From IMG/VR virus record IMGVR_UViG_3300025773_000002, positions 1-54,071 of that record: a DNA stretch of 54,071 nucleotides. One strand, given 5' to 3'. Below the pieces are notes generated by a model. That model had not been told where the DNA came from. It made no database searches and saw nothing but the letters and a program-made list of their open reading frames with translations. The first letter of the stretch is position 1; the number at the start of each line of letters is the position of its first letter. This document shows, one piece after another, positions 5,393 through 21,642 of this stretch. The translations under genes and the position numbers were made by a program. This DNA is from a virus. Lineage: Duplodnaviria > Caudoviricetes.

Positions 5393-6715
5393 TTATCTAT
5401 TTCTAAATTTAGCAAATAAACTTGCTGGAGTTCTTTCCTCCACTTCCGTTGCTTTGCCAGATGAAGAAGATCCCATGAGACCATCAGATGTGGAAGATCC
5501 ACGCATCTTTTTGATGGTTTCTTGCAATTCAGCAATTTGTTTTTCTTGTGCAAAAGAATAAGCCTTTAGTTTTTTATATTTCGAGCCTTGGGTAAGAACC
5601 TTCGTTATTTGCTCTGGAGCATAGTTGCTGTTCTCACGCAATGCCGCTTCAGCAATCAACTCATCTTCTGTTGTATCATCATCAATCTTTTGTGATGCAA
5701 TAATCTTTGCAATCTCTTCTGGATATTTAATGGAATCCTCAAGCGACTGCTTGGCTTGGAGGAATGCATCCTGCCAGCGTTTTCCGATTTGGGATTTGGT
5801 CATGTTTGCACGACGAGCCTTCTCCTCATCAGCTTGTGCCTTGGTTATCTCCCAATTCTGGAGAGCTTGGATACGATTCTCAACCTTACCAAGAACATCG
5901 TAAGCTGTAGTATTGAATTTAGCCTGTTCCATAGGAGAGAGATTCTCGTAGATGGCATTAAGAGTCTGTTTGGAAATCTCACGCTGTCTGGATCTTTCAT
6001 TCTGATCTGTTGTGCGAAGTGATGTTTCATATGCGGCAACAGCTTTCTCAAATTCCGTAACGTAAGTTGGGTCTTCCCCAAGGATCATTTTGATCTGACT
6101 ATAACCATTGAGAATAGGTTGATCATAATTCTCTTTGAATACTGGATCAGCAGGAAGGTTGAGGAATGCATTTGCTTTGCGAAGCTGTTCAAGATCATTG
6201 GAGAGTGCTTCTTCACGCTCTTGCTTTTCTTTGATTGCCAATTCCAATTCTTTTTGGAGTTTTTCAACTTGTTTTTTTGTTTCGCTATCGTCGATCTTGG
6301 AACGAAGCTCCTCAATCTCTTGTTTGGACTTCTCATAATCAGCGACCTTGGCTTTTAGTTCAGCGGCTTCTTTAGAAAGCTGTTCGTTGGTTTGCTTTAG
6401 AGTCTTGATGTATCCAGGCTTCTTTTCGTCTTCAACGGACGATGCCTTTATTTCTGGTTCTTCCCTATTTTCTACTGCTTCACGCCTAGCTTGTTTTTCC
6501 TCATCAACCTTATCTTGGAATTGAGAAGAATCTTGATTCAACTTCTCTGCCATTTTCTTAAACAGATCTGTAGGGTTTCCCTTTGGAGCTTCTTTGATGT
6601 CGCTCTTGAAAAAAGCATCAGCTTGTTTTACAGCGGCTTCTCTTGCGGCTTTGTCAGCGGCAGATGCGGCGGTAAGATTTGGGTTCTGTGCAGGGTCAAT
6701 AGGTTGTTCAGACAT
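5393..6715 (-). CDS. Capsid scaffolding protein
   Basis: Highly charged coiled-coil protein between portal and MCP. Confidence 0.75.
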   Translation of the reverse strand: MSEQPIDPAQNPNLTAASAADKAAREAAVKQADAFFKSDIKEAPKGNPTDLFKKMAEKLNQDSSQFQDKVDEEKQARREAVENREEPEIKASSVEDEKKPGYIKTLKQTNEQLSKEAAELKAKVADYEKSKQEIEELRSKIDDSETKKQVEKLQKELELAIKEKQEREEALSNDLEQLRKANAFLNLPADPVFKENYDQPILNGYSQIKMILGEDPTYVTEFEKAVAAYETSLRTTDQNERSRQREISKQTLNAIYENLSPMEQAKFNTTAYDVLGKVENRIQALQNWEITKAQADEEKARRANMTKSQIGKRWQDAFLQAKQSLEDSIKYPEEIAKIIASQKIDDDTTEDELIAEAALRENSNYAPEQITKVLTQGSKYKKLKAYSFAQEKQIAELQETIKKMRGSSTSDGLMGSSSSGKATEVEERTPASLFAKFRNR

Positions 6716-7009: not shown

Positions 7010-9614
7010 TCTGGTTGCCTATTTCGGGGTTGCTTTGTGCTAGTTGTTCTTGCTGTGCAATAGCGGCTTGCTGTGCCGCCATGTCCTGTGTGTTTTGTTG
7101 GTCGTTATGATCCAACTCTTGTTCATGTTGATCCTGCATAGCTTGTGCATCCTGTGATGCCTTTGCCCTGTGGATCTGGATTTCATTAGCGGCTTTTGCC
7201 CTCTTGGTAGCAAGATCAGTTGATGCCCTTTCCATTGCCATTGTGTCATGCAACTTGGCTTTCTGTGCCATTGCCGCCAGCTTGATGTTTTCTTTCTTCT
7301 GAAGGAAATCAGTTTGCATGGATTCTTTAGCAACAAGAGCATGGAGCTTGACTTGCTCTGGCGACATATTCTGATCACCTTGCTGTTGCTGATTGGCTTT
7401 CTCAATTTGAGCAAGCTGGCTACCAAGTTCATCAGTTCCACGCTGAAGCTGTTGCATCTGCTGACCAAATTCTTTGGCAATTTGTTTCTTGGAAGGATCT
7501 TTCTGGATGAATCCAAGGTGAGCAGTAAGGTGTGGGCCTTTGAATCGGATGAGGCAAGCGTAGATATCTTTGATAAGATCAATAGCTTCCTCTGACATAT
7601 TGTTGGCAACTTGACCACGGGTAGGTGCTTGAGGATTAACACCGGCACTCTGCAAGGCTTGTTGTGCTTCCTGCATAGATGCGGCGGCATCTTGGATATG
7701 ACCCTTGAAATGCTCCACATGGTTCTGATCTGGATACACCCTAAAGTTAGCGGCATTACCTTTTGGATCAGTCATACCAATGTTCTCCATTGAGATGATT
7801 CCTTGCTCATCAGGGATCTCAACCTTGGTGTGCTGGAAGTAACGGTTCACATTTTGGCGACCATTCAATGCGGCAATCGCATCAGCGATAGCATTTGCTT
7901 GACCATCATTCATAGGAGTCATTCCCGTGAGTGAAACAGTCTGCTGTGCCGCCATCAGTTTGTATGATGGGCTACCAGAACCAGAAAGCATATTGGATTC
8001 AAGGTTCTCAATGTTTTCCCACTTCCATGCTTCTGCTGGAACATTGTTTTCCTCCATGAAATCAACAAACTTCTGCTTGAGTTTGTAACCATAACCACCC
8101 TTGGTCGTGCGGCTCATGCGTTTGTATAGGAGTTTCAGCCAGCGAGTCTGGTTGTCATTGAACCTACGAATTTGAGTACCTTGTAGCTTGGCACTTTCAG
8201 CGGCATCCATTTGGGATTCAGCTTTCGTCCTAGCCTTCCCTGTTTTGGAGTAATTGCCAATATTGTATGCACCAATTCCACGATAAAGATCAGCTTGATA
8301 AAACTGGATACCAGAAAGCACCTCGTTGAATGGGATGTTTACGGAAACTTGTTGTGGTTCCACATCTTGAGGAAGAACCATGAATGGCATCCACTCCATC
8401 TGCTTGAGCTTCTTGGTTGATTCAGCAGAACCACCCTTGAACATCAAACGAGTATTCCAATCTACGGCATCCATGAAACGATTCATGTGGATGTCATAAG
8501 CTCGGCATTGGATAAAGATAGCTTCAGCAAGACCCTGGATCTCATGCCAGATACCAGAACCAGTTGAGTCAGTCATGGGAGCAATGATGTCCTCCCAACC
8601 ATTCTCATCCTTTTCTACCCAATCTTTTTTGTAATAAAGGAATCCTGTCTGATCACGATACTCTTCTTCCGTAAGATCCTTTCGACCATTTTCTTTGTAG
8701 CCAAGTACAAGACCTCCATAGTTTTGGAGAAGAAGCATCTTGGAGATAGATCCGTTAAACTCCATGATGTAGAGTTCATACAACTCAATGCGGAGAGTGT
8801 ACAAACGGGAAAGATTCATGTTGCCAGATGCAACGTCCCTTAACCATTCCGTATTGGTATAAGTATTACGATAGTTGGTCGTGAACATCCGTAGTGCATC
8901 TACACAAGCCCAGAAGTTCCAACCCATTTCGGTTGCGTGTGCTTCTGCTTTTACTGGATCTTCTTCTCCACCAGTAATTTTGAGCCAAAACTCAAGTGGC
9001 GTATAGCTACGTTTGATGCAAAGCTCACCCAAGTTGGTAAGATCGGCATACGTTTTATCAGGAATCAAGACATTGGAGTTATGGAAACTTTTTGTGGGCC
9101 ACCCATCCCTATCTTCAGCAATCTCAAATCCCTTTCCATACAAGCTCATCTCTTCAACATCCAATTCAACATTGTAGTTATAGGAAGGCCAAGAACGGAG
9201 CATCCGATCAAATCCCACACTGATAATATCACTCCATATTTTCTTTTCGGTAGGATTACCAATCTTGGTTGTGATATTTGCGGCTGTATTTCGCTCCATA
9301 ACCATGTCCACAAAGCTGGACTTTTGGTTATCAACGATGAATTTCATTTGACGGAATGGCACATTGCTCATTCCTTGCATCTGCCTTGCGGCTACCTGAC
9401 TATAATCTGTGGGAGGGAATCCCTTATAACATTTGTAAATACGTCCCCACTTACGTTCACGACCAGCATTGTCTAATCGAAGATTCCAGCAAATTGTAAA
9501 TGCATCATTGGCTGTTTGGACACGGCTAGTAGGTGCTACACCATTGGAGTTGATGGTATTAAAACCCCAACTCGACACACCCTCACGATTTACAATTCTT
9601 TTTGTTTTTGCCAT
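7002..9614 (-). CDS. Portal protein (P22-like, long Gln-rich helical C-terminus)
   Basis: 870 aa, position upstream of scaffold/MCP, C-terminal Q/A-rich coiled coil. Confidence 0.8.
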   Translation of the reverse strand: MAKTKRIVNREGVSSWGFNTINSNGVAPTSRVQTANDAFTICWNLRLDNAGRERKWGRIYKCYKGFPPTDYSQVAARQMQGMSNVPFRQMKFIVDNQKSSFVDMVMERNTAANITTKIGNPTEKKIWSDIISVGFDRMLRSWPSYNYNVELDVEEMSLYGKGFEIAEDRDGWPTKSFHNSNVLIPDKTYADLTNLGELCIKRSYTPLEFWLKITGGEEDPVKAEAHATEMGWNFWACVDALRMFTTNYRNTYTNTEWLRDVASGNMNLSRLYTLRIELYELYIMEFNGSISKMLLLQNYGGLVLGYKENGRKDLTEEEYRDQTGFLYYKKDWVEKDENGWEDIIAPMTDSTGSGIWHEIQGLAEAIFIQCRAYDIHMNRFMDAVDWNTRLMFKGGSAESTKKLKQMEWMPFMVLPQDVEPQQVSVNIPFNEVLSGIQFYQADLYRGIGAYNIGNYSKTGKARTKAESQMDAAESAKLQGTQIRRFNDNQTRWLKLLYKRMSRTTKGGYGYKLKQKFVDFMEENNVPAEAWKWENIENLESNMLSGSGSPSYKLMAAQQTVSLTGMTPMNDGQANAIADAIAALNGRQNVNRYFQHTKVEIPDEQGIISMENIGMTDPKGNAANFRVYPDQNHVEHFKGHIQDAAASMQEAQQALQSAGVNPQAPTRGQVANNMSEEAIDLIKDIYACLIRFKGPHLTAHLGFIQKDPSKKQIAKEFGQQMQQLQRGTDELGSQLAQIEKANQQQQGDQNMSPEQVKLHALVAKESMQTDFLQKKENIKLAAMAQKAKLHDTMAMERASTDLATKRAKAANEIQIHRAKASQDAQAMQDQHEQELDHNDQQNTQDMAAQQAAIAQQEQLAQSNPEIGNQNG

Positions 9615-9615
9615 T

Positions 9616-10014
9616 TTAGCCTAGTGTTTGGTTCATTGCTTGTCTGCGTTTTTGACAAGCGGTGCAACCCTTTGCGGCTTGTTCAAGGTTCGTTTGAACC
9701 CCAAGTGTTGCCGCAACACGATCACCCAAGCTAGCAAATGTATGTATTACATTAGCCACCTTGTCGCCAGCTTCTTGCCAACAGTATTGACCTGGGATTC
9801 TCCCACAAATTTGTTGTTCGATCAAGTAATCTAAATTATCTGGCACTTCCACATTGTTATTTTTCATGTCACTGGCAACTTTGTTGGAGAATTGTCTGCC
9901 ATAAGTCATCTCCATTCCATTGACACGATATTTAGTTCCCTTGTCATCGCTGTACTCATACCAGAGTCCACTTGGGATCGGCCCGTTTTTATCCTTTAGT
10001 CTCATGTAGCTCAA
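9616..10014 (-). CDS. Hypothetical Cys-containing protein
   Basis: C-terminal GCTACQKRR motif; first gene of the head operon. Confidence 0.7.
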   Translation of the reverse strand: MSYMRLKDKNGPIPSGLWYEYSDDKGTKYRVNGMEMTYGRQFSNKVASDMKNNNVEVPDNLDYLIEQQICGRIPGQYCWQEAGDKVANVIHTFASLGDRVAATLGVQTNLEQAAKGCTACQKRRQAMNQTLG

Positions 10015-10057
10015 ATGATTTGCATTCTTTTTATATTTTTGTCAATAGTTAATCCAC

Positions 10058-11983
10058 ATGGAATATAACGGATTGGTTTTGGATGCACCAAAAGACACAA
10101 CATATGGCATCCCATATTTAGAGACTGTTCCACAGTTTGTTCGTGAGCTTTCTTGCTATGCATTAACCCGTGGAGAGTTTGGAAGGATACAAAGGATTAA
10201 ACGAGGCATTAGAATTGAGGATACTGACCTTAAAAATCCTGCTCAACATATGGTTAATTGCTTTAACCTTATTTATGGCAACGATGTGTTACTCCATTCG
10301 CAAGGAATCCCGAATAATTATGCCCTAGACATCATTGATTTGTTCTGCAACGAGAATGATTGGGGAATTGCAGGGTGTGCATCCAGCGGAAAGACGTTTT
10401 CTGTGGCGGCTTGTATCGTGATGGATTGGATTTCAGCTCCCACAGTCACCTCAACATATGTTGCATCTACCTCTTTGGATGCATCTGAAGACCGTTTGTG
10501 GGGTAAAGTTTGCACCCTTTACAGGACGGCAATGCGTAATATTCAAACCCAATACAAGACTGCAACCATTGGAAATCTGGTTGAGTACCGAAGAATGATT
10601 GTTTTTGAGTCGATTGATACTCGTGATACGGAACGAGACTATACAAATGCCATCAAAGCAGTTGCTTTTCCAAAAGGAGGCGAAGGTCAAAAAGCGGTTG
10701 ATAATATGCGGGGTAGGAAAAACGAACGAGTGAGAGTTTTTTTAGATGAATTGGCAGAAATGGATCTGTATTGCCTCAATGTGCGATCAAATTTTACCGC
10801 AGGAAACGATGATGTTTTGTTTGGAGGCATGGCAAACCCATCAAATACGGCAAATAACCCACATACGGAGCTATGCGAACCCGATGATCCTATGGGATGG
10901 GAGTCTGTGAATAGGTACACCAAGAGATGGAAAACCCGTACAGGGGTTGCCTTGCACCTTTCTGGAGAAGAAAGTCCAAATCTTCAAGCTCCAGATGCAG
11001 AAATACCTCCTTTTAAGAACTTTCTGACTTATAAAAAAATGGAGGCAACATTAAAAATATGCTATGGCAATAAAAATGCCCTAGAATATTGGCGAAATGT
11101 TTATGGTTGGTGGCCCGATAACTCTGTAGAACTTACAATTTTATCAAAAGCATTCATTGCTGGATGCGATTTGAACTTTGAACCCGTTTGGAGTGGCAGA
11201 ACTAGGGTTGTTTGCGGATTTGACCCTGCATTTACTGCTGGTGGAGATAGATGTGCGGCATCTTTTTGTCGATTAGGTCAAAATGATACTGGTCGTAACG
11301 TAGGTTTCTATCTCGGAACTAGAGAATATGAGTCTAGCGTAGGTGATGTCTTTGAAGAATCCATAGCAATGCAGTTGGTAAAGGATTGTATTGAGTTCGG
11401 TGTACATCCACGGGACTTTGGATTGGATATATCTGGTGATGGTGGAAAGATGATGAGAGCAATCATCATTGAATGGAGCAAATTCCATCCAGAGGCTATG
11501 TTTGTATTCCCGATTTCCTCGATGGGTATGCCAACAGAGCGTAGGATCAGCAATCTTGATAAGCGTACTTGCAAAGAAGCATACGATAGATTGGTTACTG
11601 AATATTGGTTTGCTGTTCACACGGCATTCTCCACCAGATCATTGGTTGGTATTGACGTAGATGCCCATTCCAAGGTCGTAAACGAGCTTTGTAGTCGCCT
11701 TTATTACCACAAGGGAAGAAAGGTGGCAGTCGAGAAGAAACTCGACATGAAGCATCGTTTGAAGAAGTCACCCGATTTGGCTGACTCATTGACCTATGCT
11801 GTCCAGATGCTCCGCAGGGCAGGACTTGAATTTGCGTTTGAGGAAGAGACAGTTTCTTTAGACATCCAGGAAATCAGCGATTGGGAAAACCGATTGATCC
11901 ATAGCAAAGGAACTACCCAAGAAAAAATTGAGGATGATGAATGGGGATATGGTGGCAAAGGGACGGATGAAGATGGGTTCTAA
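10058..11983 (+). CDS. terL: Terminase large subunit
   Basis: Walker A GCASSGKT, Walker B VFLDE, GMANP coupling motif, RNase H-like GFDPA..GGD and SPDLADS. Confidence 0.92.
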   Translation: MEYNGLVLDAPKDTTYGIPYLETVPQFVRELSCYALTRGEFGRIQRIKRGIRIEDTDLKNPAQHMVNCFNLIYGNDVLLHSQGIPNNYALDIIDLFCNENDWGIAGCASSGKTFSVAACIVMDWISAPTVTSTYVASTSLDASEDRLWGKVCTLYRTAMRNIQTQYKTATIGNLVEYRRMIVFESIDTRDTERDYTNAIKAVAFPKGGEGQKAVDNMRGRKNERVRVFLDELAEMDLYCLNVRSNFTAGNDDVLFGGMANPSNTANNPHTELCEPDDPMGWESVNRYTKRWKTRTGVALHLSGEESPNLQAPDAEIPPFKNFLTYKKMEATLKICYGNKNALEYWRNVYGWWPDNSVELTILSKAFIAGCDLNFEPVWSGRTRVVCGFDPAFTAGGDRCAASFCRLGQNDTGRNVGFYLGTREYESSVGDVFEESIAMQLVKDCIEFGVHPRDFGLDISGDGGKMMRAIIIEWSKFHPEAMFVFPISSMGMPTERRISNLDKRTCKEAYDRLVTEYWFAVHTAFSTRSLVGIDVDAHSKVVNELCSRLYYHKGRKVAVEKKLDMKHRLKKSPDLADSLTYAVQMLRRAGLEFAFEEETVSLDIQEISDWENRLIHSKGTTQEKIEDDEWGYGGKGTDEDGF

Positions 11984-11987
11984 AAAA

Positions 11988-12023
11988 TAACCCCATCCCC
12001 TGTGCGTACAAGGAATGGGGTTA
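11988..12023. terminator. Stem-loop after terL
   Basis: TAACCCCAT/ATGGGGTTA stem; the U-tract is better on the minus strand. Confidence 0.55.
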
Positions 12024-12052
12024 AAAAGATACCCAACAATTTGAATATGGTG

Positions 12053-12081
12053 TTGACATATCAAAACAGCAAGCATATTTT
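12053..12081 (+). promoter_or_regulatory. Sigma70-like promoter flanked by 15-bp direct repeats
   Basis: TTGACA-17-TATTTT; AAAAGATACCCAACA at 12024 and 12085. Confidence 0.6.
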
Positions 12082-12087
12082 CACAAA

Positions 12088-12405
12088 AGATACCCAACAT
12101 CGAAATCCTCGCTGGATCGGTGTTGAGACATACACATGAGAGGGAGTCTAATGCTGACGCACCCAATCTAGGCGAGAACACCAAAGGTTTCTACCCTTGA
12201 AGATTTTGCGGGGTAGTTTGATAAGAGTGTGACGACATGGGAGCTTGAGCAGTTTACAGCCTCATTCCTTCTGCAATTCCATGTTCCAGTAATGGTGTGC
12301 TAATGATCCTTTCCGACGGTATGTGGAAGTAAATGGCATAGTTTAGCCTGTAATGGGCGAACTATGTCTTGAAGCCTTCCTCTGGTGTTGGAAGCATATA
12401 CCATT
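12088..12405 (+). ncRNA. Candidate structured ncRNA A (about 315 nt)
   Basis: No credible ORF; at least five stems with G-U pairs; upstream promoter. Confidence 0.5.
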
Positions 12406-12432
12406 GACTCTGATTTATATGTAGTTCATACT
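12404..12432 (+). promoter_or_regulatory. Sigma70-like promoter of the pentein operon (near-leaderless)
   Basis: TTGACT-17-CATACT, 10 nt before the ATG at 12443. Confidence 0.5.
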
Positions 12433-12442
12433 CCGCTATCCT

Positions 12443-13399
12443 ATGAAGTTTTCTCCCCAAGAATTTAGAAACGGTTCAATCATCCCATCTGTTCTCAATG
12501 GAAAAGTCGATTCTTCCGTCTCTAGCCTCATAGGTAAATCAGAAGTTACTTCATTCGGTGGCGGTCAATACAAGCGGAAACCAAATTTCCTCATGTGTCC
12601 CCCAAAATACTTGTCTACGGCTATCCCGAACAACAAGTTTATGAAGGGTCAGAAAATTGATACTGAACGTGCCATGCGTCAGTACGCTCGTATCAAGAGA
12701 CTCATTACTGCTCTCGGTGTTAAAGTCATTGAACTTCCTCCTACCAAAGGGGCACAAGATCAGCACTTTGTTGCTAACCTTGGACTCTCGGTAGATCCGT
12801 TTATTTTCCTAGCCAAGATGTCTGCCCCTGGTCGAACCATCGAAGAGGAACCTGGTCGTAGGTTCTTTGAGAAGATGGGTTATACAGTTCTCCAACCTCC
12901 TCACTATTGGGAAGGCGAAGCTGAAACAAAACACTGGAAAGACAAAACGTATTTTGGCGGCTATGGAAAATTCTCCGATTGGAAAGCCCAAGAATGGATT
13001 TCCAAAAAGGGTGGTATCGAAATCATACCTATGCGAATGGTGAGTGATGATCTCTACCACTTGGATTGCTGTATCCATGTCCTAGACAAAGAGAACTTGA
13101 TGGTTTGTCGTAGTGGCATTGATTCGGAATCATTTAAGAGACTAGAAAAACTTGCCAATATCATTGTTGTTCCAAAAGAGATGGAAGCAACTGGTGCTAC
13201 CAATCTGATCCGTATCCCTGACAAAAACATTGTGATCAGTGGTATGTTCCAACCAGAGTATGGTCAGTATCGTAACTCAATGGAATGGATGCTTACTACA
13301 ATGGACAAATTCAACAACTCTGTTATTTTTGCTGACATTGATGAAGCTGATAAAAACGGAGCCGATTGTTCATGCCAAGTAATGCACATGACTTTCTAA
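12443..13399 (+). CDS. Pentein superfamily enzyme (amidinotransferase/DDAH/arginine dihydrolase-like)
   Basis: FLMCPP, FVANLG, WEGEAE, YHLDCC and C-terminal catalytic Cys region GADCSC. Confidence 0.85.
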   Translation: MKFSPQEFRNGSIIPSVLNGKVDSSVSSLIGKSEVTSFGGGQYKRKPNFLMCPPKYLSTAIPNNKFMKGQKIDTERAMRQYARIKRLITALGVKVIELPPTKGAQDQHFVANLGLSVDPFIFLAKMSAPGRTIEEEPGRRFFEKMGYTVLQPPHYWEGEAETKHWKDKTYFGGYGKFSDWKAQEWISKKGGIEIIPMRMVSDDLYHLDCCIHVLDKENLMVCRSGIDSESFKRLEKLANIIVVPKEMEATGATNLIRIPDKNIVISGMFQPEYGQYRNSMEWMLTTMDKFNNSVIFADIDEADKNGADCSCQVMHMTF

Positions 13400-13560
13400 A
13401 ATCTCTTTGGAGATGGTTGGTTGGTAGGATTGCTTTTATCAATGGGTATTGTCCAGAGTGTCTAACTGACTTAAAAGATTGTAATAAAAGTCCTTGTCAT
13501 GTCTGTAATGTTCTGGGCTACATAAGGCCGAATCGGGTATGGACTAGATTTAAGACATGA
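13372..13560 (+). CDS. Small Cys-rich protein
   Basis: CPEC..C..CHVC motifs; start uncertain. Confidence 0.45.
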   Translation: MPSNAHDFLKSLWRWLVGRIAFINGYCPECLTDLKDCNKSPCHVCNVLGYIRPNRVWTRFKT

Positions 13561-13665
13561 ATAAAACAACCACATCACCCAATGCCAAAACAAACGTCTC
13601 CACAATGCGAGAATCAAGAGTCAGTTACGGTACAAAAAAAACAAAGCGTAAGCCAAAGAAATAAT

Positions 13666-13983
13666 ATGAATGCTGAACAAGATGCTTTTGAAATATGGAG
13701 CAAAGCTGGTTCAGCAGGATTAGAGAAATATCGTAAAGGCCAAGCAGAACACAGAACAGATTTCTGGACTGCTGGTGCAGGATGGTATGCACAAAACTTG
13801 CGAGATGAACAGTTGGATCTAATTAGCTATCTCCATCACCTAATTGAAAGAATAGATTCCATGCAAGTATTGGCAGAGATGATGGAAAATGAGGATGTCT
13901 CACTACGAGATGCCGCAACAATACTCAAACAATTGACATCCAGTAATCCCCCCAACAAGGCTTGTCACCAATCTAATGACTAA
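13666..13983 (+). CDS. All-alpha NTP pyrophosphatase-like protein (putative)
   Basis: GLEKY..W..NLRDEQLDLISYL resembles the KY..EExxD..Y motif of MazG-like phage proteins. Confidence 0.45.
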   Translation: MNAEQDAFEIWSKAGSAGLEKYRKGQAEHRTDFWTAGAGWYAQNLRDEQLDLISYLHHLIERIDSMQVLAEMMENEDVSLRDAATILKQLTSSNPPNKACHQSND

Positions 13984-14782
13984 AAAACAAAAGCCAGTTG
14001 GAGCCGTAATTGTCTCTGACCTTCATTGCGGTTCCACGGTTGGTCTTTGGCCTGATGGACATGAAACATCCACGGGTAACAAAATTGGATTAGGCAATAA
14101 TCTCCACCAGCAATGGCTATGGCAATGCTGGCAAGACAAAGATGAGAAGATTAAAACTCACTTCAAAGGTAAGCCATTTGCCTTAATCATCAATGGTGAT
14201 TGTATCGAAGGTAGGCATCATGGATCATCTGAAATCGTTGCCGCATTAAACCTAGATCATACCCTGGCCGCTATTGAGTGTCTACGTCCTCTAGCAAAAT
14301 TAGCCTGTGCAGTTTACATGACTGCTGGAACCGAGTGTCACGTTGGTGATTGGGAAAAGATGATCGCCAAAGAAATAGGTGCTACTTGGCTAGGTGACAA
14401 AGGATTACTAGAAATCAATGGTACACTCATTGATATTGCCCACCATATGCCGACAAGTTCTAGGGCATACCTTGAGGCTGGAGCAATGTCTATAACAATG
14501 GGCAATGCCAGACAGAATTACTCCCGTGTTGGTCATAGGGTTCCAAAAATATATCTACGAGGCCATAGGCACACGGGAGGAATCTTTAATGATGGTGCTG
14601 GAATATTCATGGTGACACCAGCTTGGCAGTTACTTACAAGATATGCCCACAAAGTTGTAGGAGATGCGATATGCCGTCCAGGTGTGGGAATACTGGATTG
14701 GAGTGGATGTGACAAAGGAGAACTACCAGCAACCAAAATCATTTCGTATGAACCGAAAGAAAATACACCCATCAGAAGCTGA
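13976..14782 (+). CDS. Calcineurin-like metallophosphoesterase
   Basis: SDLH, NGDCIEG, GTECH, HH and GHRH motifs. Confidence 0.85.
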   Translation: MTKKQKPVGAVIVSDLHCGSTVGLWPDGHETSTGNKIGLGNNLHQQWLWQCWQDKDEKIKTHFKGKPFALIINGDCIEGRHHGSSEIVAALNLDHTLAAIECLRPLAKLACAVYMTAGTECHVGDWEKMIAKEIGATWLGDKGLLEINGTLIDIAHHMPTSSRAYLEAGAMSITMGNARQNYSRVGHRVPKIYLRGHRHTGGIFNDGAGIFMVTPAWQLLTRYAHKVVGDAICRPGVGILDWSGCDKGELPATKIISYEPKENTPIRS

Positions 14783-15047
14783 TCTACGAGAGAGCATTAT
14801 TAAATGTGCGGTTGATCTAATCAACACACCTACAAGAGATGAAGTATCTTATGGTGAATGGTTTTCTGTTAAAGACCTTGCAGGAAAAGTAACCTTTGGA
14901 AAAGATGCTATCCGTAGGAAATTAAGAAAACGAGTGGAATTGGGAGAGGTGGAAGAAAAGATCCAAAAGTGTAGGGTAGGTAATGCAGTCGTATCGTTAA
15001 GTCTATTCCGAATAATTCCCCAAGATGAAATTGCCCGTCCGTATTAA
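14748..15047 (+). CDS. Putative winged-HTH protein
   Basis: FSVKDLA..GKDAIRRKLRKRVELGEV pattern. Confidence 0.55.
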   Translation: MNRKKIHPSEADLRESIIKCAVDLINTPTRDEVSYGEWFSVKDLAGKVTFGKDAIRRKLRKRVELGEVEEKIQKCRVGNAVVSLSLFRIIPQDEIARPY

Positions 15048-15276
15048 GTTGGAAGACAAAAAGCTAGGTAGGGAACGTAACGATGGTCAGGCTATCTTTG
15101 CAGATAAAAAGATAGAAATAGATCCACGCCTATCTACCAAATCCAGACTCAATATAGTTTTACACGAAGGGATACACATCCTTGACCCTAACCTTCCAGA
15201 ACTGAAAGTTAGAGCCTACGCAAATCGTCTATCCGATCTCCTGTGGCGTGACCGCTGGAGACGAATAGAGAAATAA
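15025..15276 (+). CDS. Small zincin-like metallopeptidase
   Basis: IEIDPRL..VLHEGIH..E (HExxH). Confidence 0.7.
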   Translation: MKLPVRIKLEDKKLGRERNDGQAIFADKKIEIDPRLSTKSRLNIVLHEGIHILDPNLPELKVRAYANRLSDLLWRDRWRRIEK

Positions 15277-15474
15277 TTAGGCGTATTCTAAAATACCCTT
15301 GGAATGATGTGCAATAAGTTGGAGGATAGCCTTCCCCTCTTCAGTAGCAACATGACCCGTCCCTTGGCACTTCCAGCAGGGTTCCCCCAAACCTTCATCG
15401 TACCAATCGGTTCCTGTACCACCGCACTCATCACACGCCTTCTCAAGAGCATTCTTGTTGAATAGGTGTTTCAT
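15277..15474 (-). CDS. Anti-TRAP (RtpA)-like DnaJ-type zinc-finger protein
   Basis: LEKACDECGGTG..PCWKCQGTG..TEEGKAILQLI follows the anti-TRAP layout. Confidence 0.7.
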   Translation of the reverse strand: MKHLFNKNALEKACDECGGTGTDWYDEGLGEPCWKCQGTGHVATEEGKAILQLIAHHSKGILEYA

Positions 15475-15529
15475 AGAATCTCACCACTAGACGAATTTTT
15501 TCTAAACACAAGACTTTTTTTATTTATAA

Positions 15530-15754
15530 ATGAAACAACAAAAAGAAGCGTATGAGAAAGCCAAAGAATTGGCACTGAAGGGTGAAGACTTCAGTATCCT
15601 GGTAGGCATCATAGATCCAGAACAAAGGATGAGGCTCCGAGCATTCGTTTTGAACTTGCCAGAGGAGTTAGCAAAGAAGACAATCTACGGAAGAGTACAA
15701 CTCTCACAGCAACCAGTAACCAAGAAATCCAGAGGCAGACCACGCAAATTATAG
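15530..15754 (+). CDS. Hypothetical protein with C-terminal AT-hook
   Basis: KKSRGRPRK. Confidence 0.65.
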   Translation: MKQQKEAYEKAKELALKGEDFSILVGIIDPEQRMRLRAFVLNLPEELAKKTIYGRVQLSQQPVTKKSRGRPRKL

Positions 15755-15787
15755 GGAGTTTAGGAAATTTAGGGAGTTTACAAATGT

Positions 15788-15815
15788 TTGACACTTTTTG
15801 ATAAATGCATAGGAT
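15788..15815 (+). promoter_or_regulatory. Sigma70-like promoter of ncRNA B
   Basis: TTGACA-16-TAGGAT, preceded by 9-bp periodic repeats at 15752-15787. Confidence 0.55.
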
Positions 15816-15822
15816 TTGTATC

Positions 15823-16010
15823 AATAGAACTCATCAAGCCTCTACTAGTTATCAAAACACATTAATGTGGCACTAGCTAGAAAGCTCAAACAGATGAGTC
15901 TTATTTCGGGGGAGGCATTGAGGGGGGTTTTATCAACTTATAGCGTCATGCGTATCCGTTCTGGGTGTTGATAGAATTTAGCGACCTGAACCTCCTCCGA
16001 CCTTTTTTTC
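15823..16010 (+). ncRNA. Candidate structured ncRNA B (about 188 nt)
   Basis: Two closed domains (15823-15905 and 15906-16000) followed by a U-tract; starts at the predicted +1. Confidence 0.6.
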
Positions 16011-16047
16011 TTGTCATTGAATCAGCTTGGGTTTTTGATTGAGCTTC

Positions 16048-16329
16048 ATGAATACATCAACCACCAACACCACACCAACTCCTAGGACGGATGAGTCTTG
16101 CGAGGCAATGGGCTTAAAAGCCTTTGTAGTGCCAGTAGAAATCTCCCGCCAGCTAGAGCGCGAACTCGCCGAGAAATCCAACGAAGTCGAGAGGCTCCGT
16201 GAGGAAAACTCCGAACTAAAACAAGGAAAGGTCTTTGTCGATCCCAAGTGGATCTACGACCTAGAAACCCAATTAGCCAAAGCCCATGAAGAACTCTGCC
16301 AAGCAGGGTTGAGGGAATACGGCAACTAA
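16048..16329 (+). CDS. Hypothetical coiled-coil protein
   Basis: TPRTD..SRQLERELAE motif common in phage small ORFs. Confidence 0.65.
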   Translation: MNTSTTNTTPTPRTDESCEAMGLKAFVVPVEISRQLERELAEKSNEVERLREENSELKQGKVFVDPKWIYDLETQLAKAHEELCQAGLREYGN

Positions 16330-16338
16330 CAGAGTAAT

Positions 16339-16620
16339 CTGTTAAAAAAACCGCTACATATTTTTAACAGCTACCACTCAAAAGTAGTGTTCCTGCTTAC
16401 TACACAGGAGTAGTGTAGTGATCACGCTACATATCCCTCAATTGTGTAGCAGATCGTAGACATCTGTAAAATGTTCATGATCGCAGACACCTGATTATTC
16501 ACCGCATTATACCTGATTGGGTATTATTCATGAGTTATAAATCACAATTATCACCGCAAGGGTATATTGTCATGTCGATTAATCTTTGTTTTCTGTACAT
16601 GAGCGTATGCATATGTACAC
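16339..16620. repeat. Array of diverse short imperfect palindromes
   Basis: About eight to nine back-to-back inverted repeats of different sequence. Confidence 0.6.
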
Positions 16621-16682
16621 AACATAAACATAAGAACCCCCTTTTGCACTTGCTCACAGACAGAGGTGTGGGGGCAAAATTC

Positions 16683-16928
16683 TTATAGTCCCTTAATCAT
16701 ATCCCTATCCCAATCCGATAGCCTAGAATCTTCTATCTTCTCCTTCAATGCCTTGCTCAATCTCTCCCTCTCCAATTTCATGCCACCATACCCCCCAGGA
16801 GAACTATCCGAATCCAACTCCAACTCATTAGCCAGACTCCTCAATAGCATTATGCTCGGCCTATTCCTCTCACTAGGTGGGTATCTCAATGTCATCGTGT
16901 CCAACGGTACTCCCCATCCCATATTCAT
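16683..16928 (-). CDS. Hypothetical protein
   Basis: 81-aa ORF with purine-rich coding-like strand bias. Confidence 0.45.
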   Translation of the reverse strand: MNMGWGVPLDTMTLRYPPSERNRPSIMLLRSLANELELDSDSSPGGYGGMKLERERLSKALKEKIEDSRLSDWDRDMIKGL

Positions 16929-17077
16929 GTCAAGTCTAGGTTATTGTAAAAGAAACTAAAAGGGAGAGAAGTTCCCAGATATAGGTTTTTTTTCATTGGG
17001 GCATGTCGCACATACGCGCCCAATATATAGGTGTGTGTACCCCCTCCCACCTCCCGAAGAGATTCCCTTGGGAGATC

Positions 17078-17632
17078 CTAGGGTGTAGCGTCCACTATCT
17101 CCGCGTCGATTACCGGCGAGACCGGCAACGCCGGCGAAGGAACCGGCAGTGCCGGTGATGACGGGCTGAAGAACTGAACAAGGAAAGAAAACGGGTTGAC
17201 TTGATCGGCTCCCACCTTGTCACTCCAATTATCACCTGCCATATTATTATCGGTTCGTATTGCTTCAATCTTTGACACTAACTTAACTTTCCTTTTAACA
17301 TTGCCATGCTGATCGACTTCCTCCGCATATTCTTGGCATAGTGGAGAATCTGCGTTGACCTGGGAGGGACTATATCGAACTACGTTGGCGAGGAAAGCAC
17401 GTTTTTCCTCTAGGGAGAGAGAATCTTTAAGGAATGCTTTCCTTTTCAGCTTGGTAACATAGTCTGCGACTCGTTCAGTCTTCAGCATTCTGCACCCTAG
17501 AGATCCATAGTCTTCAGATCGACCGCTTTTTACCTGGTAGCCAGCCCGTCGAACACTTTCGGCGATGCTCATTCCCTTGGTGACATGATTCTCAACGAAT
17601 CTCTTTTGTTTAGTTGTTAATGTTTTGTACAT
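17078..17632 (-). CDS. terS: Terminase small subunit
   Basis: N-terminal LTTKQKRFV..ESVRRAGY HTH typical of TerS, followed by helical oligomerisation region. Confidence 0.75.
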   Translation of the reverse strand: MYKTLTTKQKRFVENHVTKGMSIAESVRRAGYQVKSGRSEDYGSLGCRMLKTERVADYVTKLKRKAFLKDSLSLEEKRAFLANVVRYSPSQVNADSPLCQEYAEEVDQHGNVKRKVKLVSKIEAIRTDNNMAGDNWSDKVGADQVNPFSFLVQFFSPSSPALPVPSPALPVSPVIDAEIVDATP

Positions 17633-17813
17633 GATTTACTATGCATATAACACGAGGATTCTTCCCTAGTCAACTTATCTCCATTGAACCGATGCTCGCC
17701 TACGGCTCCGCTCTATCATCTTGTGATGCGGTGGATTTGAAATGATGCGTGAAATAGAGATGATGGATACATACTGAATTTATTATGTATCGGTCATACG
17801 ATAGGATGACCAC

Positions 17814-18031
17814 AAAAAGAGCCTGTCTCTGAAAGACTCATCTTCACCACGGATTTGGAACGACCTATGAACCCTAGTCTTATTAGGTAGACTATGAAGA
17901 GAGGATCACAATCGCAGCGTGATCTCATTATTAAAGCGGGACGGCTAGTACCCCGCTTCCAACCTTCGCACGTGGGCCGACATTCTCGATTCCCAGGTGT
18001 TACACCATCAAGTGATCTTGTCACCTGATGT
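17814..18031 (-). ncRNA. Candidate structured ncRNA C / terS leader (about 218 nt)
   Basis: Promoter TTGCAA-16-TATATT (18063-18036), multibranch stems, terminator-like hairpin with U5. Confidence 0.55.
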
Positions 18032-18103
18032 TCTAAATATATATGAAGAATTGAAGATTGCAACAGAGAATGAAAAAAAGATCATCTTTCCCATAAAAAT
18101 ATC

Positions 18104-18131
18104 TTGCAAGATTCTTTTAGTGTGCTATCTT
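18104..18131 (+). promoter_or_regulatory. Early promoter, probably giving a leaderless mRNA
   Basis: TTGCAA-16-TATCTT with extended -10 TG; ATG 7 nt downstream; -35 lies within the palindrome ATCTTGCAAGAT. Confidence 0.55.
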
Positions 18132-18137
18132 TGTCTC

Positions 18138-18437
18138 ATGACTGAATCACTCACCCCTTCCACAACTAGTATTCATGCGGCTTCCCAGTCTGTTGCCTTG
18201 AATCGCAATTCTATTTTCTGGATGATCATGAAGCGTGAAGATGGAACACTTTTTCCGAGGGAATTCAAGTTCCGTAAATTCAATAGGAAGGCAAATACCT
18301 GCGAGTGGTCACGTTTCGGCACGAGCATTCAAGATGCTCCCATGAAGTCATCGATTGACTATGTGGAGCGTAAATCTTTTCAGAATGTGCATGAAGCACA
18401 TAAAGCAATTTCCCTGCGCTCCATGCGTAGGGATTAA
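18138..18437 (+). CDS. Hypothetical early protein
   Basis: ATG at the predicted +1. Confidence 0.6.
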   Translation: MTESLTPSTTSIHAASQSVALNRNSIFWMIMKREDGTLFPREFKFRKFNRKANTCEWSRFGTSIQDAPMKSSIDYVERKSFQNVHEAHKAISLRSMRRD

Positions 18438-18455
18438 CCAAACACCAACAACAAC

Positions 18456-18620
18456 ATGAAAAAACACGACCCTAAAAATTGCCCTGCATGCAAAAAGCCA
18501 TCAATGCTCTTTATAATCCGAGAAAAAGGGAAAGAGGAGCGAATCAACACAGCTTGCCCTGCATGTTCAATGGCTCACGATGACGCAAAAGGATGGATTT
18601 TTTATCCTTTCCTCAAATAA
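18456..18620 (+). CDS. Small zinc-ribbon protein (54 aa, not in ORF track)
   Basis: Two CPAC motifs, AC-rich leader. Confidence 0.6.
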   Translation: MKKHDPKNCPACKKPSMLFIIREKGKEERINTACPACSMAHDDAKGWIFYPFLK

Positions 18621-18636
18621 CTGACAAAAAAACAAA

Positions 18637-18948
18637 ATGACAACACCAACAAAGACAAAGAAAGTAGGCGACCTGGTCACCGACACTTACCAGGTAGCAA
18701 CCAGGCTCGGCAAATATGAAATCGACCTTTATCACAAGGAGGGAAAGCTTCCCCACGGCTACGAGATGACGAAGGATGGCGAAAGCGAATTCTTTGCGAC
18801 TGGAGAGCTTGAAATGGTAGAGGAGGCAGGGCAAGAGATCATAGAAGGTTATGATGGAACTTACACCTTGCCGCTTCCCTTGGCGAAGCTCCTAGCCTCC
18901 CTGGGCTACGCTTTCGCCGCTTACGTTTTCCCCTATGACAACCTGTAA
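18637..18948 (+). CDS. Hypothetical early protein
   Basis: ORF in the early cluster. Confidence 0.65.
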   Translation: MTTPTKTKKVGDLVTDTYQVATRLGKYEIDLYHKEGKLPHGYEMTKDGESEFFATGELEMVEEAGQEIIEGYDGTYTLPLPLAKLLASLGYAFAAYVFPYDNL

Positions 18949-18967
18949 CCCCTCACCTGGTAACAAC

Positions 18968-19102
18968 ATGAAAAAATCCGATGCAATCACCGCTTGGAAT
19001 CGTTCCAAGCAACTCCACGCCCTAACCCTACGCCTTTCAATCCTAGCGGCATTAGCGGCCATCCTAGCCGCAAGAATCGCTTACCTAGTAACCAACAACT
19101 AA
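18968..19102 (+). CDS. Small membrane protein (44 aa, not in ORF track)
   Basis: Single hydrophobic helix LSILAALAAILAARIAYLV. Confidence 0.5.
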   Translation: MKKSDAITAWNRSKQLHALTLRLSILAALAAILAARIAYLVTNN

Positions 19103-19130
19103 ACACCACCCAACCCAACCAACTAAAAAC

Positions 19131-19424
19131 ATGAACACGAAAACAGAATCAGAACACCTCATCGCTGTAGTGGTACGCTACAAAGGCCCAACGGATTGCA
19201 GGGGATCGAGAACAATCCTTTCCCTCCCACGGTTTGGCAATCAGAAAGTAACACTGTCATATGGTTATGAATTTAATTCATCCAGGGAACAGGCTGAAGA
19301 ATGGTTAACAAGCGAAGGAATGACAGGAATCACGGTGACAGCTTGTCTTGATATGGTAGATCACTGGATTCTCGGCGTTCCCTTTTCATGTGTCGATGCT
19401 TTGAAAGGAGCTTTCAATATCTAA
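19131..19424 (+). CDS. Hypothetical early protein
   Basis: YKGPTDCRGSR motif of a common phage early-protein family. Confidence 0.7.
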   Translation: MNTKTESEHLIAVVVRYKGPTDCRGSRTILSLPRFGNQKVTLSYGYEFNSSREQAEEWLTSEGMTGITVTACLDMVDHWILGVPFSCVDALKGAFNI

Positions 19425-19444
19425 CCACTAAAGGAGAAAACATC

Positions 19445-19636
19445 ATGACAACCGTTCTTTTATTCAAAAAAGACACTTCTCGAAGTTTTATGTCCCTGCC
19501 CTGGTGGGTTTCAACATATAAAGGCGATACTATCGCATCAAAGGGATTCCCCACTGCAAAAGAGGCGAGAGCATACGCTAAATCTAAAGGATGGTCTGTT
19601 CACCGTTCGCCTGGCTGCGACGAATATTTTTCTTAA
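19445..19636 (+). CDS. Hypothetical early protein
   Basis: AAAGGAG ribosome-binding site; FPTAKEARAYAKSKGW motif. Confidence 0.65.
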   Translation: MTTVLLFKKDTSRSFMSLPWWVSTYKGDTIASKGFPTAKEARAYAKSKGWSVHRSPGCDEYFS

Positions 19637-19664
19637 TAATTAAAGCAGACGTAAAGGAGAAAAC

Positions 19665-20345
19665 ATGACAACTTATAACTTCCATTTCACCGCTAAATCC
19701 GACAACGTAAAAACGGGAGACATGCCCGTCACAACGTCAACAGCGGCAACCTGCCCCGACAAATGCCCCTTGAAAAAAGGGGGATGTTACGCAAAAAACT
19801 CTTTTCTCGGGATGCACTGGAAAAAAGTCACGGACGGCAGTAGGGGGGAAAGCTTTACCTCTTTCCTTAAAAAAATAAGATCAATTCTTCCTGGCACCTT
19901 GTGGAGACACGGACAAGCCGGAGACCTACCAGGCAAGGGCGACCGCATAAACGCCCGTGACTTATTACGCCTCGCAAAGGCCGCACGGGGAACGAGAGGC
20001 TTCACGTACACCCACAAGCCGCCGACCGCTGACAATCTAAAAGCTATCCGAGCCGCTACCCGTGAAGGTTTCGTGATTAACCTTTCTGGAAATAACCTCA
20101 AACACGCTGACCGCTTGTCCAGGCACGGGTTGCCAGTTGTGGCAGTCCTTCCCTCCGAATCCGTAAAGGTTAAGAATCTGACTACGCCCCAAGGACGGCC
20201 CGTAGTGGTTTGCCCTGCTACCAGGAGCGAATACATCACCTGCAAAACGTGCGGACTCTGTTCCAAGGCTGACCGCCCCTTTATTATTGGATTTCCAGCT
20301 CACGGGACAATGTCAGCAAAAGCCGATGCAATCGCCAACAACTAA
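19665..20345 (+). CDS. Gp88-like Cys-rich radical-SAM-related protein
   Basis: NVKTG, CPDKCP..GCYA, RHGQAGD, FTYTH, CPA..CKTCGLC..FPAHG. Confidence 0.7.
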   Translation: MTTYNFHFTAKSDNVKTGDMPVTTSTAATCPDKCPLKKGGCYAKNSFLGMHWKKVTDGSRGESFTSFLKKIRSILPGTLWRHGQAGDLPGKGDRINARDLLRLAKAARGTRGFTYTHKPPTADNLKAIRAATREGFVINLSGNNLKHADRLSRHGLPVVAVLPSESVKVKNLTTPQGRPVVVCPATRSEYITCKTCGLCSKADRPFIIGFPAHGTMSAKADAIANN

Positions 20346-20371
20346 CCCCCAACCCCAACACAACCCAACCT

Positions 20372-20572
20372 ATGAAACTACACCCTAGCATAACTGAAGA
20401 CAGAATCATCCAGGCAATCGAAACCGACGATATGGAGGGAATATGTACCGCTTGCGGTGAATCTTCCTCTTCACCTTGTGAACCCGATGCCAGGAACTAC
20501 GAATGCGACTCGTGCGGAGCTTTCAAGGTTTATGGAGCCTCCGAGCTTCTTTTCCATCTCCCTTTAATCTAA
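20372..20572 (+). CDS. Zinc-ribbon protein
   Basis: CTACG..EPDARNYECDSCG. Confidence 0.7.
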   Translation: MKLHPSITEDRIIQAIETDDMEGICTACGESSSSPCEPDARNYECDSCGAFKVYGASELLFHLPLI

Positions 20573-20593
20573 CCCCAACCCCAACCTAAAAAC

Positions 20594-20791
20594 ATGAACA
20601 TAAAAACAGCAGTCGATATTCTTTACGGAAACGCCGTAGAGTCAACAACCCTCACCTTCACGCCTAACTTGGAGAAATTGCAACCCGTACGAGCTAGGAG
20701 CATCCAGGATAGCCTAGAAAGCATCATTGCAACGTGTGAAGCATTAAATCGAGAGATTGAGGACATCAAGTACGCCTTGGAGAACGAATAA
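20594..20791 (+). CDS. Hypothetical early protein
   Basis: ORF with repeated leader. Confidence 0.6.
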   Translation: MNIKTAVDILYGNAVESTTLTFTPNLEKLQPVRARSIQDSLESIIATCEALNREIEDIKYALENE

Positions 20792-20803
20792 CCGCCGCCG
20801 ATT

Positions 20804-20986
20804 ATGAAAAAACCCGAACAATTCCAACTTATACCAGAAAAAGAGATGCCTTTTAACTTGGCAGGGCAAACTTACAAAGAATGGGCAAAATCTCTGCCCG
20901 ATGAACCCGAAGATGGCCCAGAACCGCAAGGAAACTTGACCTGGATCACCGCCGCCGACCTCTGCATGAACTACTCTAACGAATAA
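20804..20986 (+). CDS. Hypothetical early protein
   Basis: Shares the EKEMPFxLxGxT peptide with the 2496-aa protein. Confidence 0.6.
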   Translation: MKKPEQFQLIPEKEMPFNLAGQTYKEWAKSLPDEPEDGPEPQGNLTWITAADLCMNYSNE

Positions 20987-21019
20987 AACCACTAACTAAC
21001 TGAAACAAAAGGAGAAAAT

Positions 21020-21172
21020 ATGAACCCAACACCCTATCAGATAATATTAACCGCCGCCTTTCTAGGTTATCATGTAACCGAATACCAGGCGGTCGAGATC
21101 GCCGCCCTATGGAGAAAATCATGGGACAGCATGGAGAATGCCATAAGAGATTACTTTGCCGCCTACGAATAA
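21020..21172 (+). CDS. Hypothetical protein (50 aa, not in ORF track)
   Basis: AAAGGAG ribosome-binding site. Confidence 0.55.
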   Translation: MNPTPYQIILTAAFLGYHVTEYQAVEIAALWRKSWDSMENAIRDYFAAYE

Positions 21173-21202
21173 CCGCCGCCGCAACCCTTAACTGATACGA
21201 AT

Positions 21203-21370: not shown

Positions 21371-21377
21371 TACAATC

Positions 21378-21632: not shown

Positions 21633-21642
21633 AACGCAACCT

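Follow-up and report, generated by a model that had tools for sequence, protein, structure and literature searches.

The window analysed here is a stretch of DNA of 54,071 nucleotides (nt), positions 1 to 54,071 of the IMG/VR record IMGVR_UViG_3300025773_000002 (Duplodnaviria; Caudoviricetes), and by its gene content in protein scans (Erf, exonuclease, terS, QueD and tail genes) it belongs to a tailed double-stranded DNA phage. Between the gene of the large terminase subunit (terL; 641 amino acids (aa), 10058-11983, plus strand; phrog_2, E 1.1e-8) and the gene of a pentein-fold protein (318 aa, 12443-13399, plus strand; PF19420, E 4.2e-10) lies a spacer of 459 nt (11984-12442), in which we find a plus-strand RNA candidate of ~315 nt, called RNA A, and a minus-strand small RNA (sRNA) candidate, called anti-A. 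The explanation that we favour, with a confidence somewhat better than even, is that this spacer would be an optional, horizontally exchanged RNA cassette composed of the structured RNA A and a divergent antisense sRNA. A first-pass annotation of the same letters had pointed to a structured RNA upstream of the pentein gene; the observation is real and exceeds chance, and it could be partly confirmed. The anti-A sRNA and the 15-nt repeat linking it to RNA A appear to be new relative to that annotation.

On the plus strand, RNA A would extend from ~12088, a 5′ end placed from the −10 box, to ~12401, the limit of conservation. Its predicted promoter (TTGACA-17-TATTTT, 12053-12081, plus strand), already recognised in the first pass, is of the sigma-70 type and is kept as TTGACA-17-TAGATT in the loci L024 and L049, so all three alleles maintain the two hexamers and the 17 nt between them. 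Comparison of the window with L024 delimits a conserved body (12104-12401, plus strand) with sharp boundaries, since identity reaches 89.9% in the body versus 41.6% in the promoter and leader, 50% in the downstream flank and 56% at the third codon positions of terL. Searches with terL and the pentein gene gathered 129 IMG/VR loci, among which blastn found the element 100% identical in L007, where the contig end cuts it, 99.3-99.5% identical in L008, 90% identical over 307 nt in L024 (window 12103-12409), 84% over 185 nt in L049, whose contig ends inside RNA A, and 91% over 117 nt in L094, whose contig starts inside it. The end of L049 and the start of L094 overlap by 9 nt inside RNA A (window ~12283-12287), at the junction of its 5′ and 3′ halves, which is probably an assembly break within one genome; both were nevertheless kept as separate, unjoined rows. 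Effectively, there are three alleles of RNA A in the collections searched. Pattern scans of viral sequences and a metagenome scan gave no further version, the extra matches being chance hits in unrelated sequence, and in 97 sources R2, the covariance model built on the 3′ domain, matched only the five known copies.

No match to a tRNA, tmRNA, RNase P or riboswitch had been recognised at the outset, and this holds: Rfam 15, whose families also include self-cleaving ribozymes, the phage pRNA and GOLLD, ROOL and HEARO, gave no match to the whole window at gathering thresholds, and ARAGORN found no tRNA gene in it. When the limit was relaxed to E ≤10 for 11900-12550, six sub-threshold Rfam matches appeared, with E ≥2.1 and at most 20.8 bits, none of them spanning the body.

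A consensus fold of the five rows with RNAalifold comprises 73 pairs in 10 helices, with 99.3% of the cells paired, two broken cells and six pairs changed on both sides, and covariation is seen in five of the 10 helices. Shuffles gave 1.5 ± 1.0 such compensatory pairs (0/500 reaching six), and none was left when partners were slid by 1-3 columns. A column-shuffle control was made with four rows, the near-identical L008 row being dropped: the alignment energy of −23.0 compared with −9.1 ± 2.7 in shuffles (z −5.2, 0/200), and the six compensatory pairs with 0.9 ± 1.0 (0/200). The reverse complement of the alignment reached −10.1, no better than shuffles, and 10 of the 73 pairs in the window sequence are G-U, in line with the earlier claim that the pattern favours a plus-strand RNA over DNA symmetry.

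Four consecutive domains, all on the plus strand, make up this fold. Domain 1 (12108-12176) is formed by a long-range helix (12108-12117/12166-12176) with one compensatory pair and one change from G-U to G-C, and by two inner helices (12142-12143/12162-12163 and 12146-12148/12156-12158), the latter with one compensatory pair. Domain 2 (12178-12230) consists of an outer helix (12178-12181/12227-12230) and a hairpin (12191-12197/12210-12216) that carries two compensatory pairs. In domain 3 (12236-12283) a helix with one compensatory pair (12236-12242/12277-12283) is continued by an inner helix (12249-12252/12271-12274) whose loop of 18 nt is invariant except for one base. Domain 4 (12295-12399) is closed by the helix 12295-12301/12393-12399, with one change from G-U to G-C, and contains the helix 12312-12329/12376-12392, which, judged by the substitutions, may just as well be two local hairpins, and the hairpin GGCATAGTTT/GAACTATGTC (12335-12344/12359-12368) with one compensatory pair. 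Three of the four helix sets proposed in the first pass, as well as GGCATAGTTT/GAACTATGTC, survive in this model. The first one, the hairpin 12095-12103/12117-12125, does not: present in the minimum free energy (MFE) structure of the window, it is confined to the window allele and stands in competition with the conserved helix 1 (12108-12117/12166-12176).

It could be argued that such an element has no function at all, and that it is a decaying remnant of cargo whose conservation reflects recent exchange and whose compensatory changes arose by chance or hitch-hiking. A narrow distribution, three alleles in one phage lineage after viral and metagenome scans, and the highly mosaic character of the slot speak for this idea, which is nonetheless very improbable in our view: the L049 allele, at 84% identity over 185 nt, keeps every helix that it covers and contributes four compensatory pairs, the promoter hexamers are preserved within 42%-identical sequence, the signal is strand-specific, and, as described below, a seed and its target co-vary.

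As for coding capacity, the open reading frames (ORFs) of at least 30 aa that touch 12088-12405 are three on the minus strand (34, 32 and 108 aa) and a 45-aa plus-strand ORF with a GTG start that lies across the promoter. The minus-strand ORFs are not kept by the relatives, where 1-nt indels interrupt them and start codons are lost. The description of the stretch as ORF-free has therefore held up, no conserved ORF being found. A 6-codon mini-ORF behind AGGGAG at 12150 was considered and dropped, as L049 does not keep it. A short plus-strand ORF beginning MGELCLEAFLWCWKH (window 12352-12423) starts in the three alleles and has 23, 23 and 16 codons; it is probably non-coding, since only its first 15 codons are common to the alleles, the tails being unrelated, no Shine-Dalgarno sequence precedes it and its product would be moderately hydrophobic. 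Altogether, these comparisons support RNA A as a plus-strand, promoter-driven, non-coding structured RNA outside all Rfam families.

Upstream of RNA A, the strongest terminator-like site of the region 9500-29400 is read on the opposite strand. This putative intrinsic terminator (11988-12023, minus strand) has a hairpin of 16 uninterrupted pairs, two of which are G-U and become C-A mismatches on the plus strand, and its U6 tail (11982-11987, minus strand), the plus-strand A-run directly past the terL stop codon, exists on the minus strand only. The folding energy is −25.6 kcal/mol on the minus strand versus −17.7 on the plus strand in the window, and the corresponding values are −23.1/−20.2 in L024, −24.9/−18.3 in L049 and −22.8/−13.8 in L008; despite different stem sequences, the hairpin is uninterrupted and U-tailed on the minus strand only in all four sequences folded. 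Directly 5′ of it in the minus reading lies the first copy (12024-12038, minus strand) of an exact 15-nt direct repeat, X, of sequence AAAAGATACCCAACA, which would provide the single-stranded 5′ seed UGUUGGGUAUCUUUU. Both the minus-only terminator and the 15-nt repeat would be explained by a small minus-strand gene. Its proposed promoter (12044-12072, minus strand; −35 TTGCTG at 12072..12067, a 17-nt spacer and −10 CATATT at 12049..12044) interlocks with that of RNA A, and the same geometry is observed in the window, L024, L049 and L050. Among 10 slot variants examined, seven have a minus −35 of the form TTGACN (5/6 matches) and two have none. The predicted sRNA of ~57 nt (~12038-11982) is composed of the free 15-nt seed and the terminator (−25.6 kcal/mol, z −5.4).

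The second and only other copy of X in the window (12085-12099, plus strand) supplies the first 12 nt of RNA A counted from ~12088, and the seed of the sRNA is the exact complement of these first ~12 nt. In L024 and L049 another repeat, ATCACAAGTGC, occupies both equivalent places and is accompanied by a second block; both copies thus carry the changed sequence, which indicates that seed-target pairing is kept across alleles. The second block of L024 has a C/T difference between its DNA copies that corresponds to a G-U pair in an RNA duplex. Duplexes between the seed only and the first 45 nt of RNA A were compared with 1000 shuffled seeds, a version containing the terminator being uninformative. 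The cognate duplexes reached −18.1 (window), −33.7 (L024) and −32.1 kcal/mol (L049), with 0/1000 shuffles each, whereas combinations of the window with the L024/L049 type remained at chance (369-816/1000); L024 and L049 cross-pair with each other. Along the full RNA A the best site for the seed is the extreme 5′ end in the three alleles. In the L024/L049 type the complementary sequence is partly found in hairpin loops of both partners, a form of presentation that is a habit of classical antisense systems. When X was blocked in folding, the probability of helix 1 moved from 0 to 0.27 in the window and from 0.025 to 0.066 in L024, a weak shift. A match between the domain 3 loop and the terminator arm (18 nt, 78%) was tried as a further interaction and rejected, since L024 and L049 do not keep it, and GGA motifs of the CsrA type in RNA A number five in 318 nt by manual count, which is about chance.

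Repeats at both presumed start points, flanking overlapping promoters, could also be DNA operators at which a phage or host protein shuts off both transcription units, leaving RNA A as a structured RNA and no RNA-RNA regulation; operators also co-vary between heteroimmune phages. We regard this as unlikely, because a dimeric protein at divergent promoters would be expected on inverted and not direct repeats, the first copy lies right next to a terminator predicted to act only in the minus direction, the C/T difference in the second block of L024 makes sense as a G-U pair of an RNA duplex, and neither a third copy of X in the window nor a repressor-like gene among the 37 window proteins scanned could be identified. 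The divergent sRNA whose 5′ end pairs in silico with the 5′ part of its partner also brings to mind the type I toxin-antitoxin loci tisB/istR-1 and zorO/orzO, under this reading a toxin would be encoded by RNA A behind a long structured 5′ untranslated region (UTR), and the sRNA would be its antitoxin. The ORF starting at 12352 in the three alleles would be the toxin; apart from its uneven length, unrelated tails, missing Shine-Dalgarno sequence and moderate hydrophobicity, its conservation goes no further than that of the RNA body, its substitutions are explained by helix covariation, and no other plus-strand ORF is common to the alleles, starts being lost in L024. A toxin-antitoxin pair is consequently a very doubtful reading of the cassette.

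Downstream of RNA A, the pentein gene seems to possess its own promoter (TTGACT-17-CATACT, 12404-12432, plus strand), as the first-pass annotation had suspected; it lies outside the cassette RNA and is kept in the relatives that lack the cassette, whose spacers measure 44-54 nt. Its −10 box ends 10 nt 5′ of the ATG, with no Shine-Dalgarno sequence, pointing to a leaderless or nearly leaderless mRNA, and the same applies to the minimal spacers of the relatives. A conserved promoter of this kind, present even in cassette-less relatives, indicates that RNA A is not simply the leader of the pentein gene. Together with the strand-specific covariation and the sharp boundaries of the body, it backs the initial proposal of a structured RNA that may stand alone.

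A related possibility is that RNA A acts in cis as an sRNA-gated leader of the whole plus-strand early operon (12443-~34039), which the promoter at 12053 would feed, with read-through set, for instance, by antitermination, by access for Rho or by occlusion of the promoter in front of the pentein gene. No plus-strand terminator-like site exists in 11800-12700, hence none between RNA A and the pentein gene; the orientation of RNA A matches that of the operon, and the cassette is always directly 5′ of a plus-strand gene. On the other hand, the conserved promoter of the pentein gene makes up the whole spacer in 14 of 78 loci and its presumed leader is a few nt long, with no Shine-Dalgarno sequence before the ATG. 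The cassette is optional, most pentein genes lack RNA A, and in L024 RNA A precedes a different gene, a 59-aa Cys-rich ORF. Moreover, a fold of 300 nt and four domains exceeds the needs of known leader devices, that of HK022 put measuring about 70 nt. That RNA A is a riboswitch or a leader of the pentein gene itself can be rejected: it is not constantly associated with that gene, an expression platform in the form of a terminator or a sequestered ribosome-binding site is lacking, and the promoter of the gene is placed between RNA A and the ATG. The probability that we assign to a cis-acting leader is accordingly low.

The spacer between terL and the pentein gene behaves as a slot. In the 78 loci with both flanking genes the gap between terL and pentein matches ranges from 50 to 1108 nt and the spacers proper from 44 to 1105 nt, 66 of 125 spacers are distinct, and in 14 of the 78 loci the minimal spacer of 44-54 nt is the pentein promoter alone. 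A case in point is L001, with terL 99.7% and pentein 99.4% identical to those of the window and 1105 nt of unrelated content in between, similarity breaking at the terL stop and resuming at the pentein −10 box. Near-identical flanks around unrelated content identify the slot as an exchangeable cassette site.

Directly after the terL stop most relatives carry another ORF-free element of ~300 nt with its own TTGAC promoter, element B (plus strand; for example L026:2069-2417 and L070:5927-6278, plus 23 other loci in alignment A3). Its 25 sequences support 76 pairs, 16 of them compensatory, with 83 cells changed on both sides versus 25.7 ± 3.7 in the control (0/500). Element B resembles RNA A in position, orientation, TTGAC-type promoter, length of ~300 nt, lack of an ORF and covariation, and differs from it in showing neither sequence nor model similarity and no seed-type complementarity, none having been seen between B-type loci and a minus-strand RNA. 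Homology between both elements was considered and rejected: blastn found nothing of B in the window, and a covariance model of the B core (R1; 25 sequences, 17 pairs), run against the window with filters off at E ≤10, gave 16 matches, the best with E 0.45 at 33725-33811, and none in 12088-12405. As R1 does not match it, RNA A can be taken as a positional alternative to B and not as its homologue. The swap is visible in L024, where the gene after RNA A is the one that follows B in L010, L021 and L023.

The B core model recovered the element in 29 of 74 further viral loci, with 24 of 28 complete matches adjoining a terL or pentein homologue. A B core also occurs at L276:540-612 and in L290, L291 and L244 without a close terL or pentein neighbour, which indicates that B is not confined to the slot; two of these contigs do have a terL at a distance of 2.5-3.7 kb, with no more than 23% identity. 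The element is modular, its 5′, core and 3′ parts recombining, and a diverged form is present in L055, L118 and L013. A motif search for B in a genome collection of 185,579 species had no match, and Rfam searches with B and the other slot variants (gathering thresholds; E ≤10) returned only tRNAs elsewhere.

Further cargo was observed in the slot. In L027 a tRNA-Trp (5983-6059, minus strand) is placed between terL and the B promoter, at the position of the anti-A sRNA, which means that RNA genes occur on the minus side of the slot, too. The first ~75 nt after terL in L050 contain a minus-strand terminator and the seed-like sequence UUUGGAGG, resembling the sRNA of the L049 type; it is followed by B and not by RNA A, and looks like an orphan sRNA module. 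L013, L014, L021, L022 and L077 have an ORF-free stretch of ~190 nt after terL with CCTTGCCCC...GGGGCAAGG hairpins, located 5′ of a TTGAC-N10-GTCAA double promoter and, in L013, L021 and L077, upstream of B; it may be a minus-strand RNA. Protein cargo, named by motif reading only, comprises a 256-aa ORF resembling PP-loop/PAPS reductases, with an SFGGGTQS motif, in L001 (spacer 38-808, plus strand), ORFs of HNH-type endonucleases (CxxC...HH...CxxCH) on the minus strand of the L013, L055, L077 and L100 spacers; the L038 spacer (38-793) also carries cargo of this sort. Some of this cargo takes the place of the 3′ half of element B.

With respect to the rest of the genome, other products of the window are an Erf annealing protein, a PD-(D/E)XK exonuclease, QueD/PTPS, a nucleoside deoxyribosyltransferase and tail-collar fibres. 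The gene of the small terminase subunit (17078-17632, minus strand) is found on the opposite strand, 5 kb from terL. QueD/PTPS and the nucleoside 2-deoxyribosyltransferase (30068-30451 and 30681-31058) suggest a modified-base pathway of the 7-deazaguanine type, of which the pentein adjoining RNA A may be a member. Among the 37 window proteins scanned there was no reverse transcriptase, Ro, Cas or similar partner protein for an RNA. A blastn search of the INPHARED phage genomes found nothing matching the window, and a search for hosts or prophages with terL patterns in a genome contig collection gave no relatives.

In the model that we favour, overlapping divergent promoters sharing ~30 bp would drive the two genes of the cassette. 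The plus promoter (12053-12081) would make the non-coding RNA A of ~315 nt, with its four consecutive helical domains, and the minus promoter an sRNA of ~57 nt whose free 15-nt 5′ seed precedes a strong intrinsic terminator. This seed would bind the very first nucleotides of RNA A in a duplex of 12-21 bp; to judge from other divergent antisense regulators, the most likely consequence would be cleavage or decay of RNA A, or else refolding of its 5′ end. In this way the sRNA would set the level of RNA A, and the control would be specific for each allele. At the level of sequence comparison, conservation of the promoter, plus-strand covariation, a minus-only terminator and covariation of seed and target have been demonstrated; from them we infer that both RNAs are produced and that the sign of the regulation is negative.

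Several points weigh against this model. The single-sequence fold of the window plus strand (−95.3 kcal/mol, z −1.37, 11/100 shuffles; the minus strand of the region gives z +0.56) is not significant, so the significance of the RNA A fold is a matter of comparison only, and helix 1 is missing from the single-sequence MFE structures. The comparison itself draws on three alleles and four informative rows, two of them partial, too few for statistics of the R-scape type; related sequences can inflate the shuffle tests, and the structure was predicted and tested on the same alignment, a circularity that the column-shuffle control addresses. The minus −35 of the window, TTGCTG, is weak, with 3/6 matches, and repeat X could be a protein operator pair instead of an RNA-RNA pair. 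Lacking a plus-strand terminator, RNA A has an undefined 3′ end and may read into the pentein gene. Finally, the body of RNA A has no complementary target elsewhere in the window, the longest match of 13 nt being at chance level.

What RNA A does is a separate question. A tentative answer, possible although clearly short of even probability, is that it is a trans-acting, protein-binding accessory RNA for host take-over or for competition with related phages. This role is preferred in view of an optional cassette that even near-identical genomes exchange, and of the accessory cargo found in the same slot. A more speculative and rather unlikely role is that of an RNA-only two-component system, in which an allele-specific countertranscript gates RNA A in the competition between co-infecting relatives; one example would be a phage-borne accessory origin primed by RNA, or an incompatibility determinant, of the ColE1 or MRB plasmid kind, and another an RNA toxin with an RNA antidote. 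RNA I and RNA II of ColE1 exert the same kind of RNA-only replication control as the MRB plasmids. In such a system the two seed alleles, the one of the window and the one of the L024/L049 type, would be specificity groups. The cassette is absent from the 14 of 78 loci with minimal spacers, and hence cannot be the sole origin of the lineage.

If the favoured reading is true, the locus would add a new structured-RNA family and a non-coding RNA with a dedicated antisense regulator of co-varying specificity, an arrangement that has precedents among toxin mRNAs and plasmid primers and that was met for no phage non-coding RNA in the literature searched. The terL-adjacent slot would trade RNA genes across a phage lineage, RNA A with its sRNA, element B, a tRNA and further ORF-free elements, in alternation with homing endonucleases and a PP-loop enzyme. 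Such trading makes the slot a natural starting point in the search for RNA-based functions in host take-over, anti-defence or inter-phage competition. With sigma-70-like promoters and a cassette of ~440 bp, the predictions are directly testable by cloning.

Among known systems, the closest in layout are the divergent type I loci zorO/orzO, tisB/istR-1 and shoB/ohsC, which also have a terminator-ended, divergent and non-overlapping sRNA whose 5′ seed recognises the 5′ part of the neighbouring transcript, with seeds that differ between paralogues and thereby confer specificity (PMC3919570, PMC5397157). OrzO is a divergent sRNA with an 18-nt 5′ seed and RNase III dependence, and OrzO and IstR-1 both act via their 5′ ends and RNase III (PMC3919570). 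Unlike these loci, RNA A has no conserved small hydrophobic toxin ORF, the partner of the sRNA being a covarying fold of 300 nt, and the seed is aimed at the very start of RNA A instead of an internal UTR site. A second, partial parallel comes from the MRB plasmids, where an ORF-free region gives rise to two RNAs, one long and structured with no clear terminator, the other of ~60-110 nt and directed at the 5′ part of the first, and where related replicons differ in the interacting sequence (PMC3035462). The small RNA of pB1067 is fully antisense and overlapping (PMC3035462), whereas the genes of the present cassette do not overlap and the complementarity is of 12-21 nt.

GOLLD, ROOL and similar orphan large RNAs of phages and bacteria share with RNA A a phage-borne, ORF-free and covariation-supported nature and are often near tRNA genes (10.1101/2024.12.08.627333). 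They differ in that no covariance-model similarity exists between them and RNA A, which is smaller, has a very narrow spread and comes with a candidate dedicated antisense partner. The immunity RNAs c4 of P1 and P7 and CI of P4, also short and phage-encoded, recognise complementary boxes close to the 5′ end of a neighbouring transcript, and related phages differ in RNA and boxes together. They arise by processing of the transcript that also contains their targets and regulate an operon of protein-coding genes, whereas the sRNA described here has a predicted divergent promoter and terminator of its own, and its putative target is a non-coding fold.

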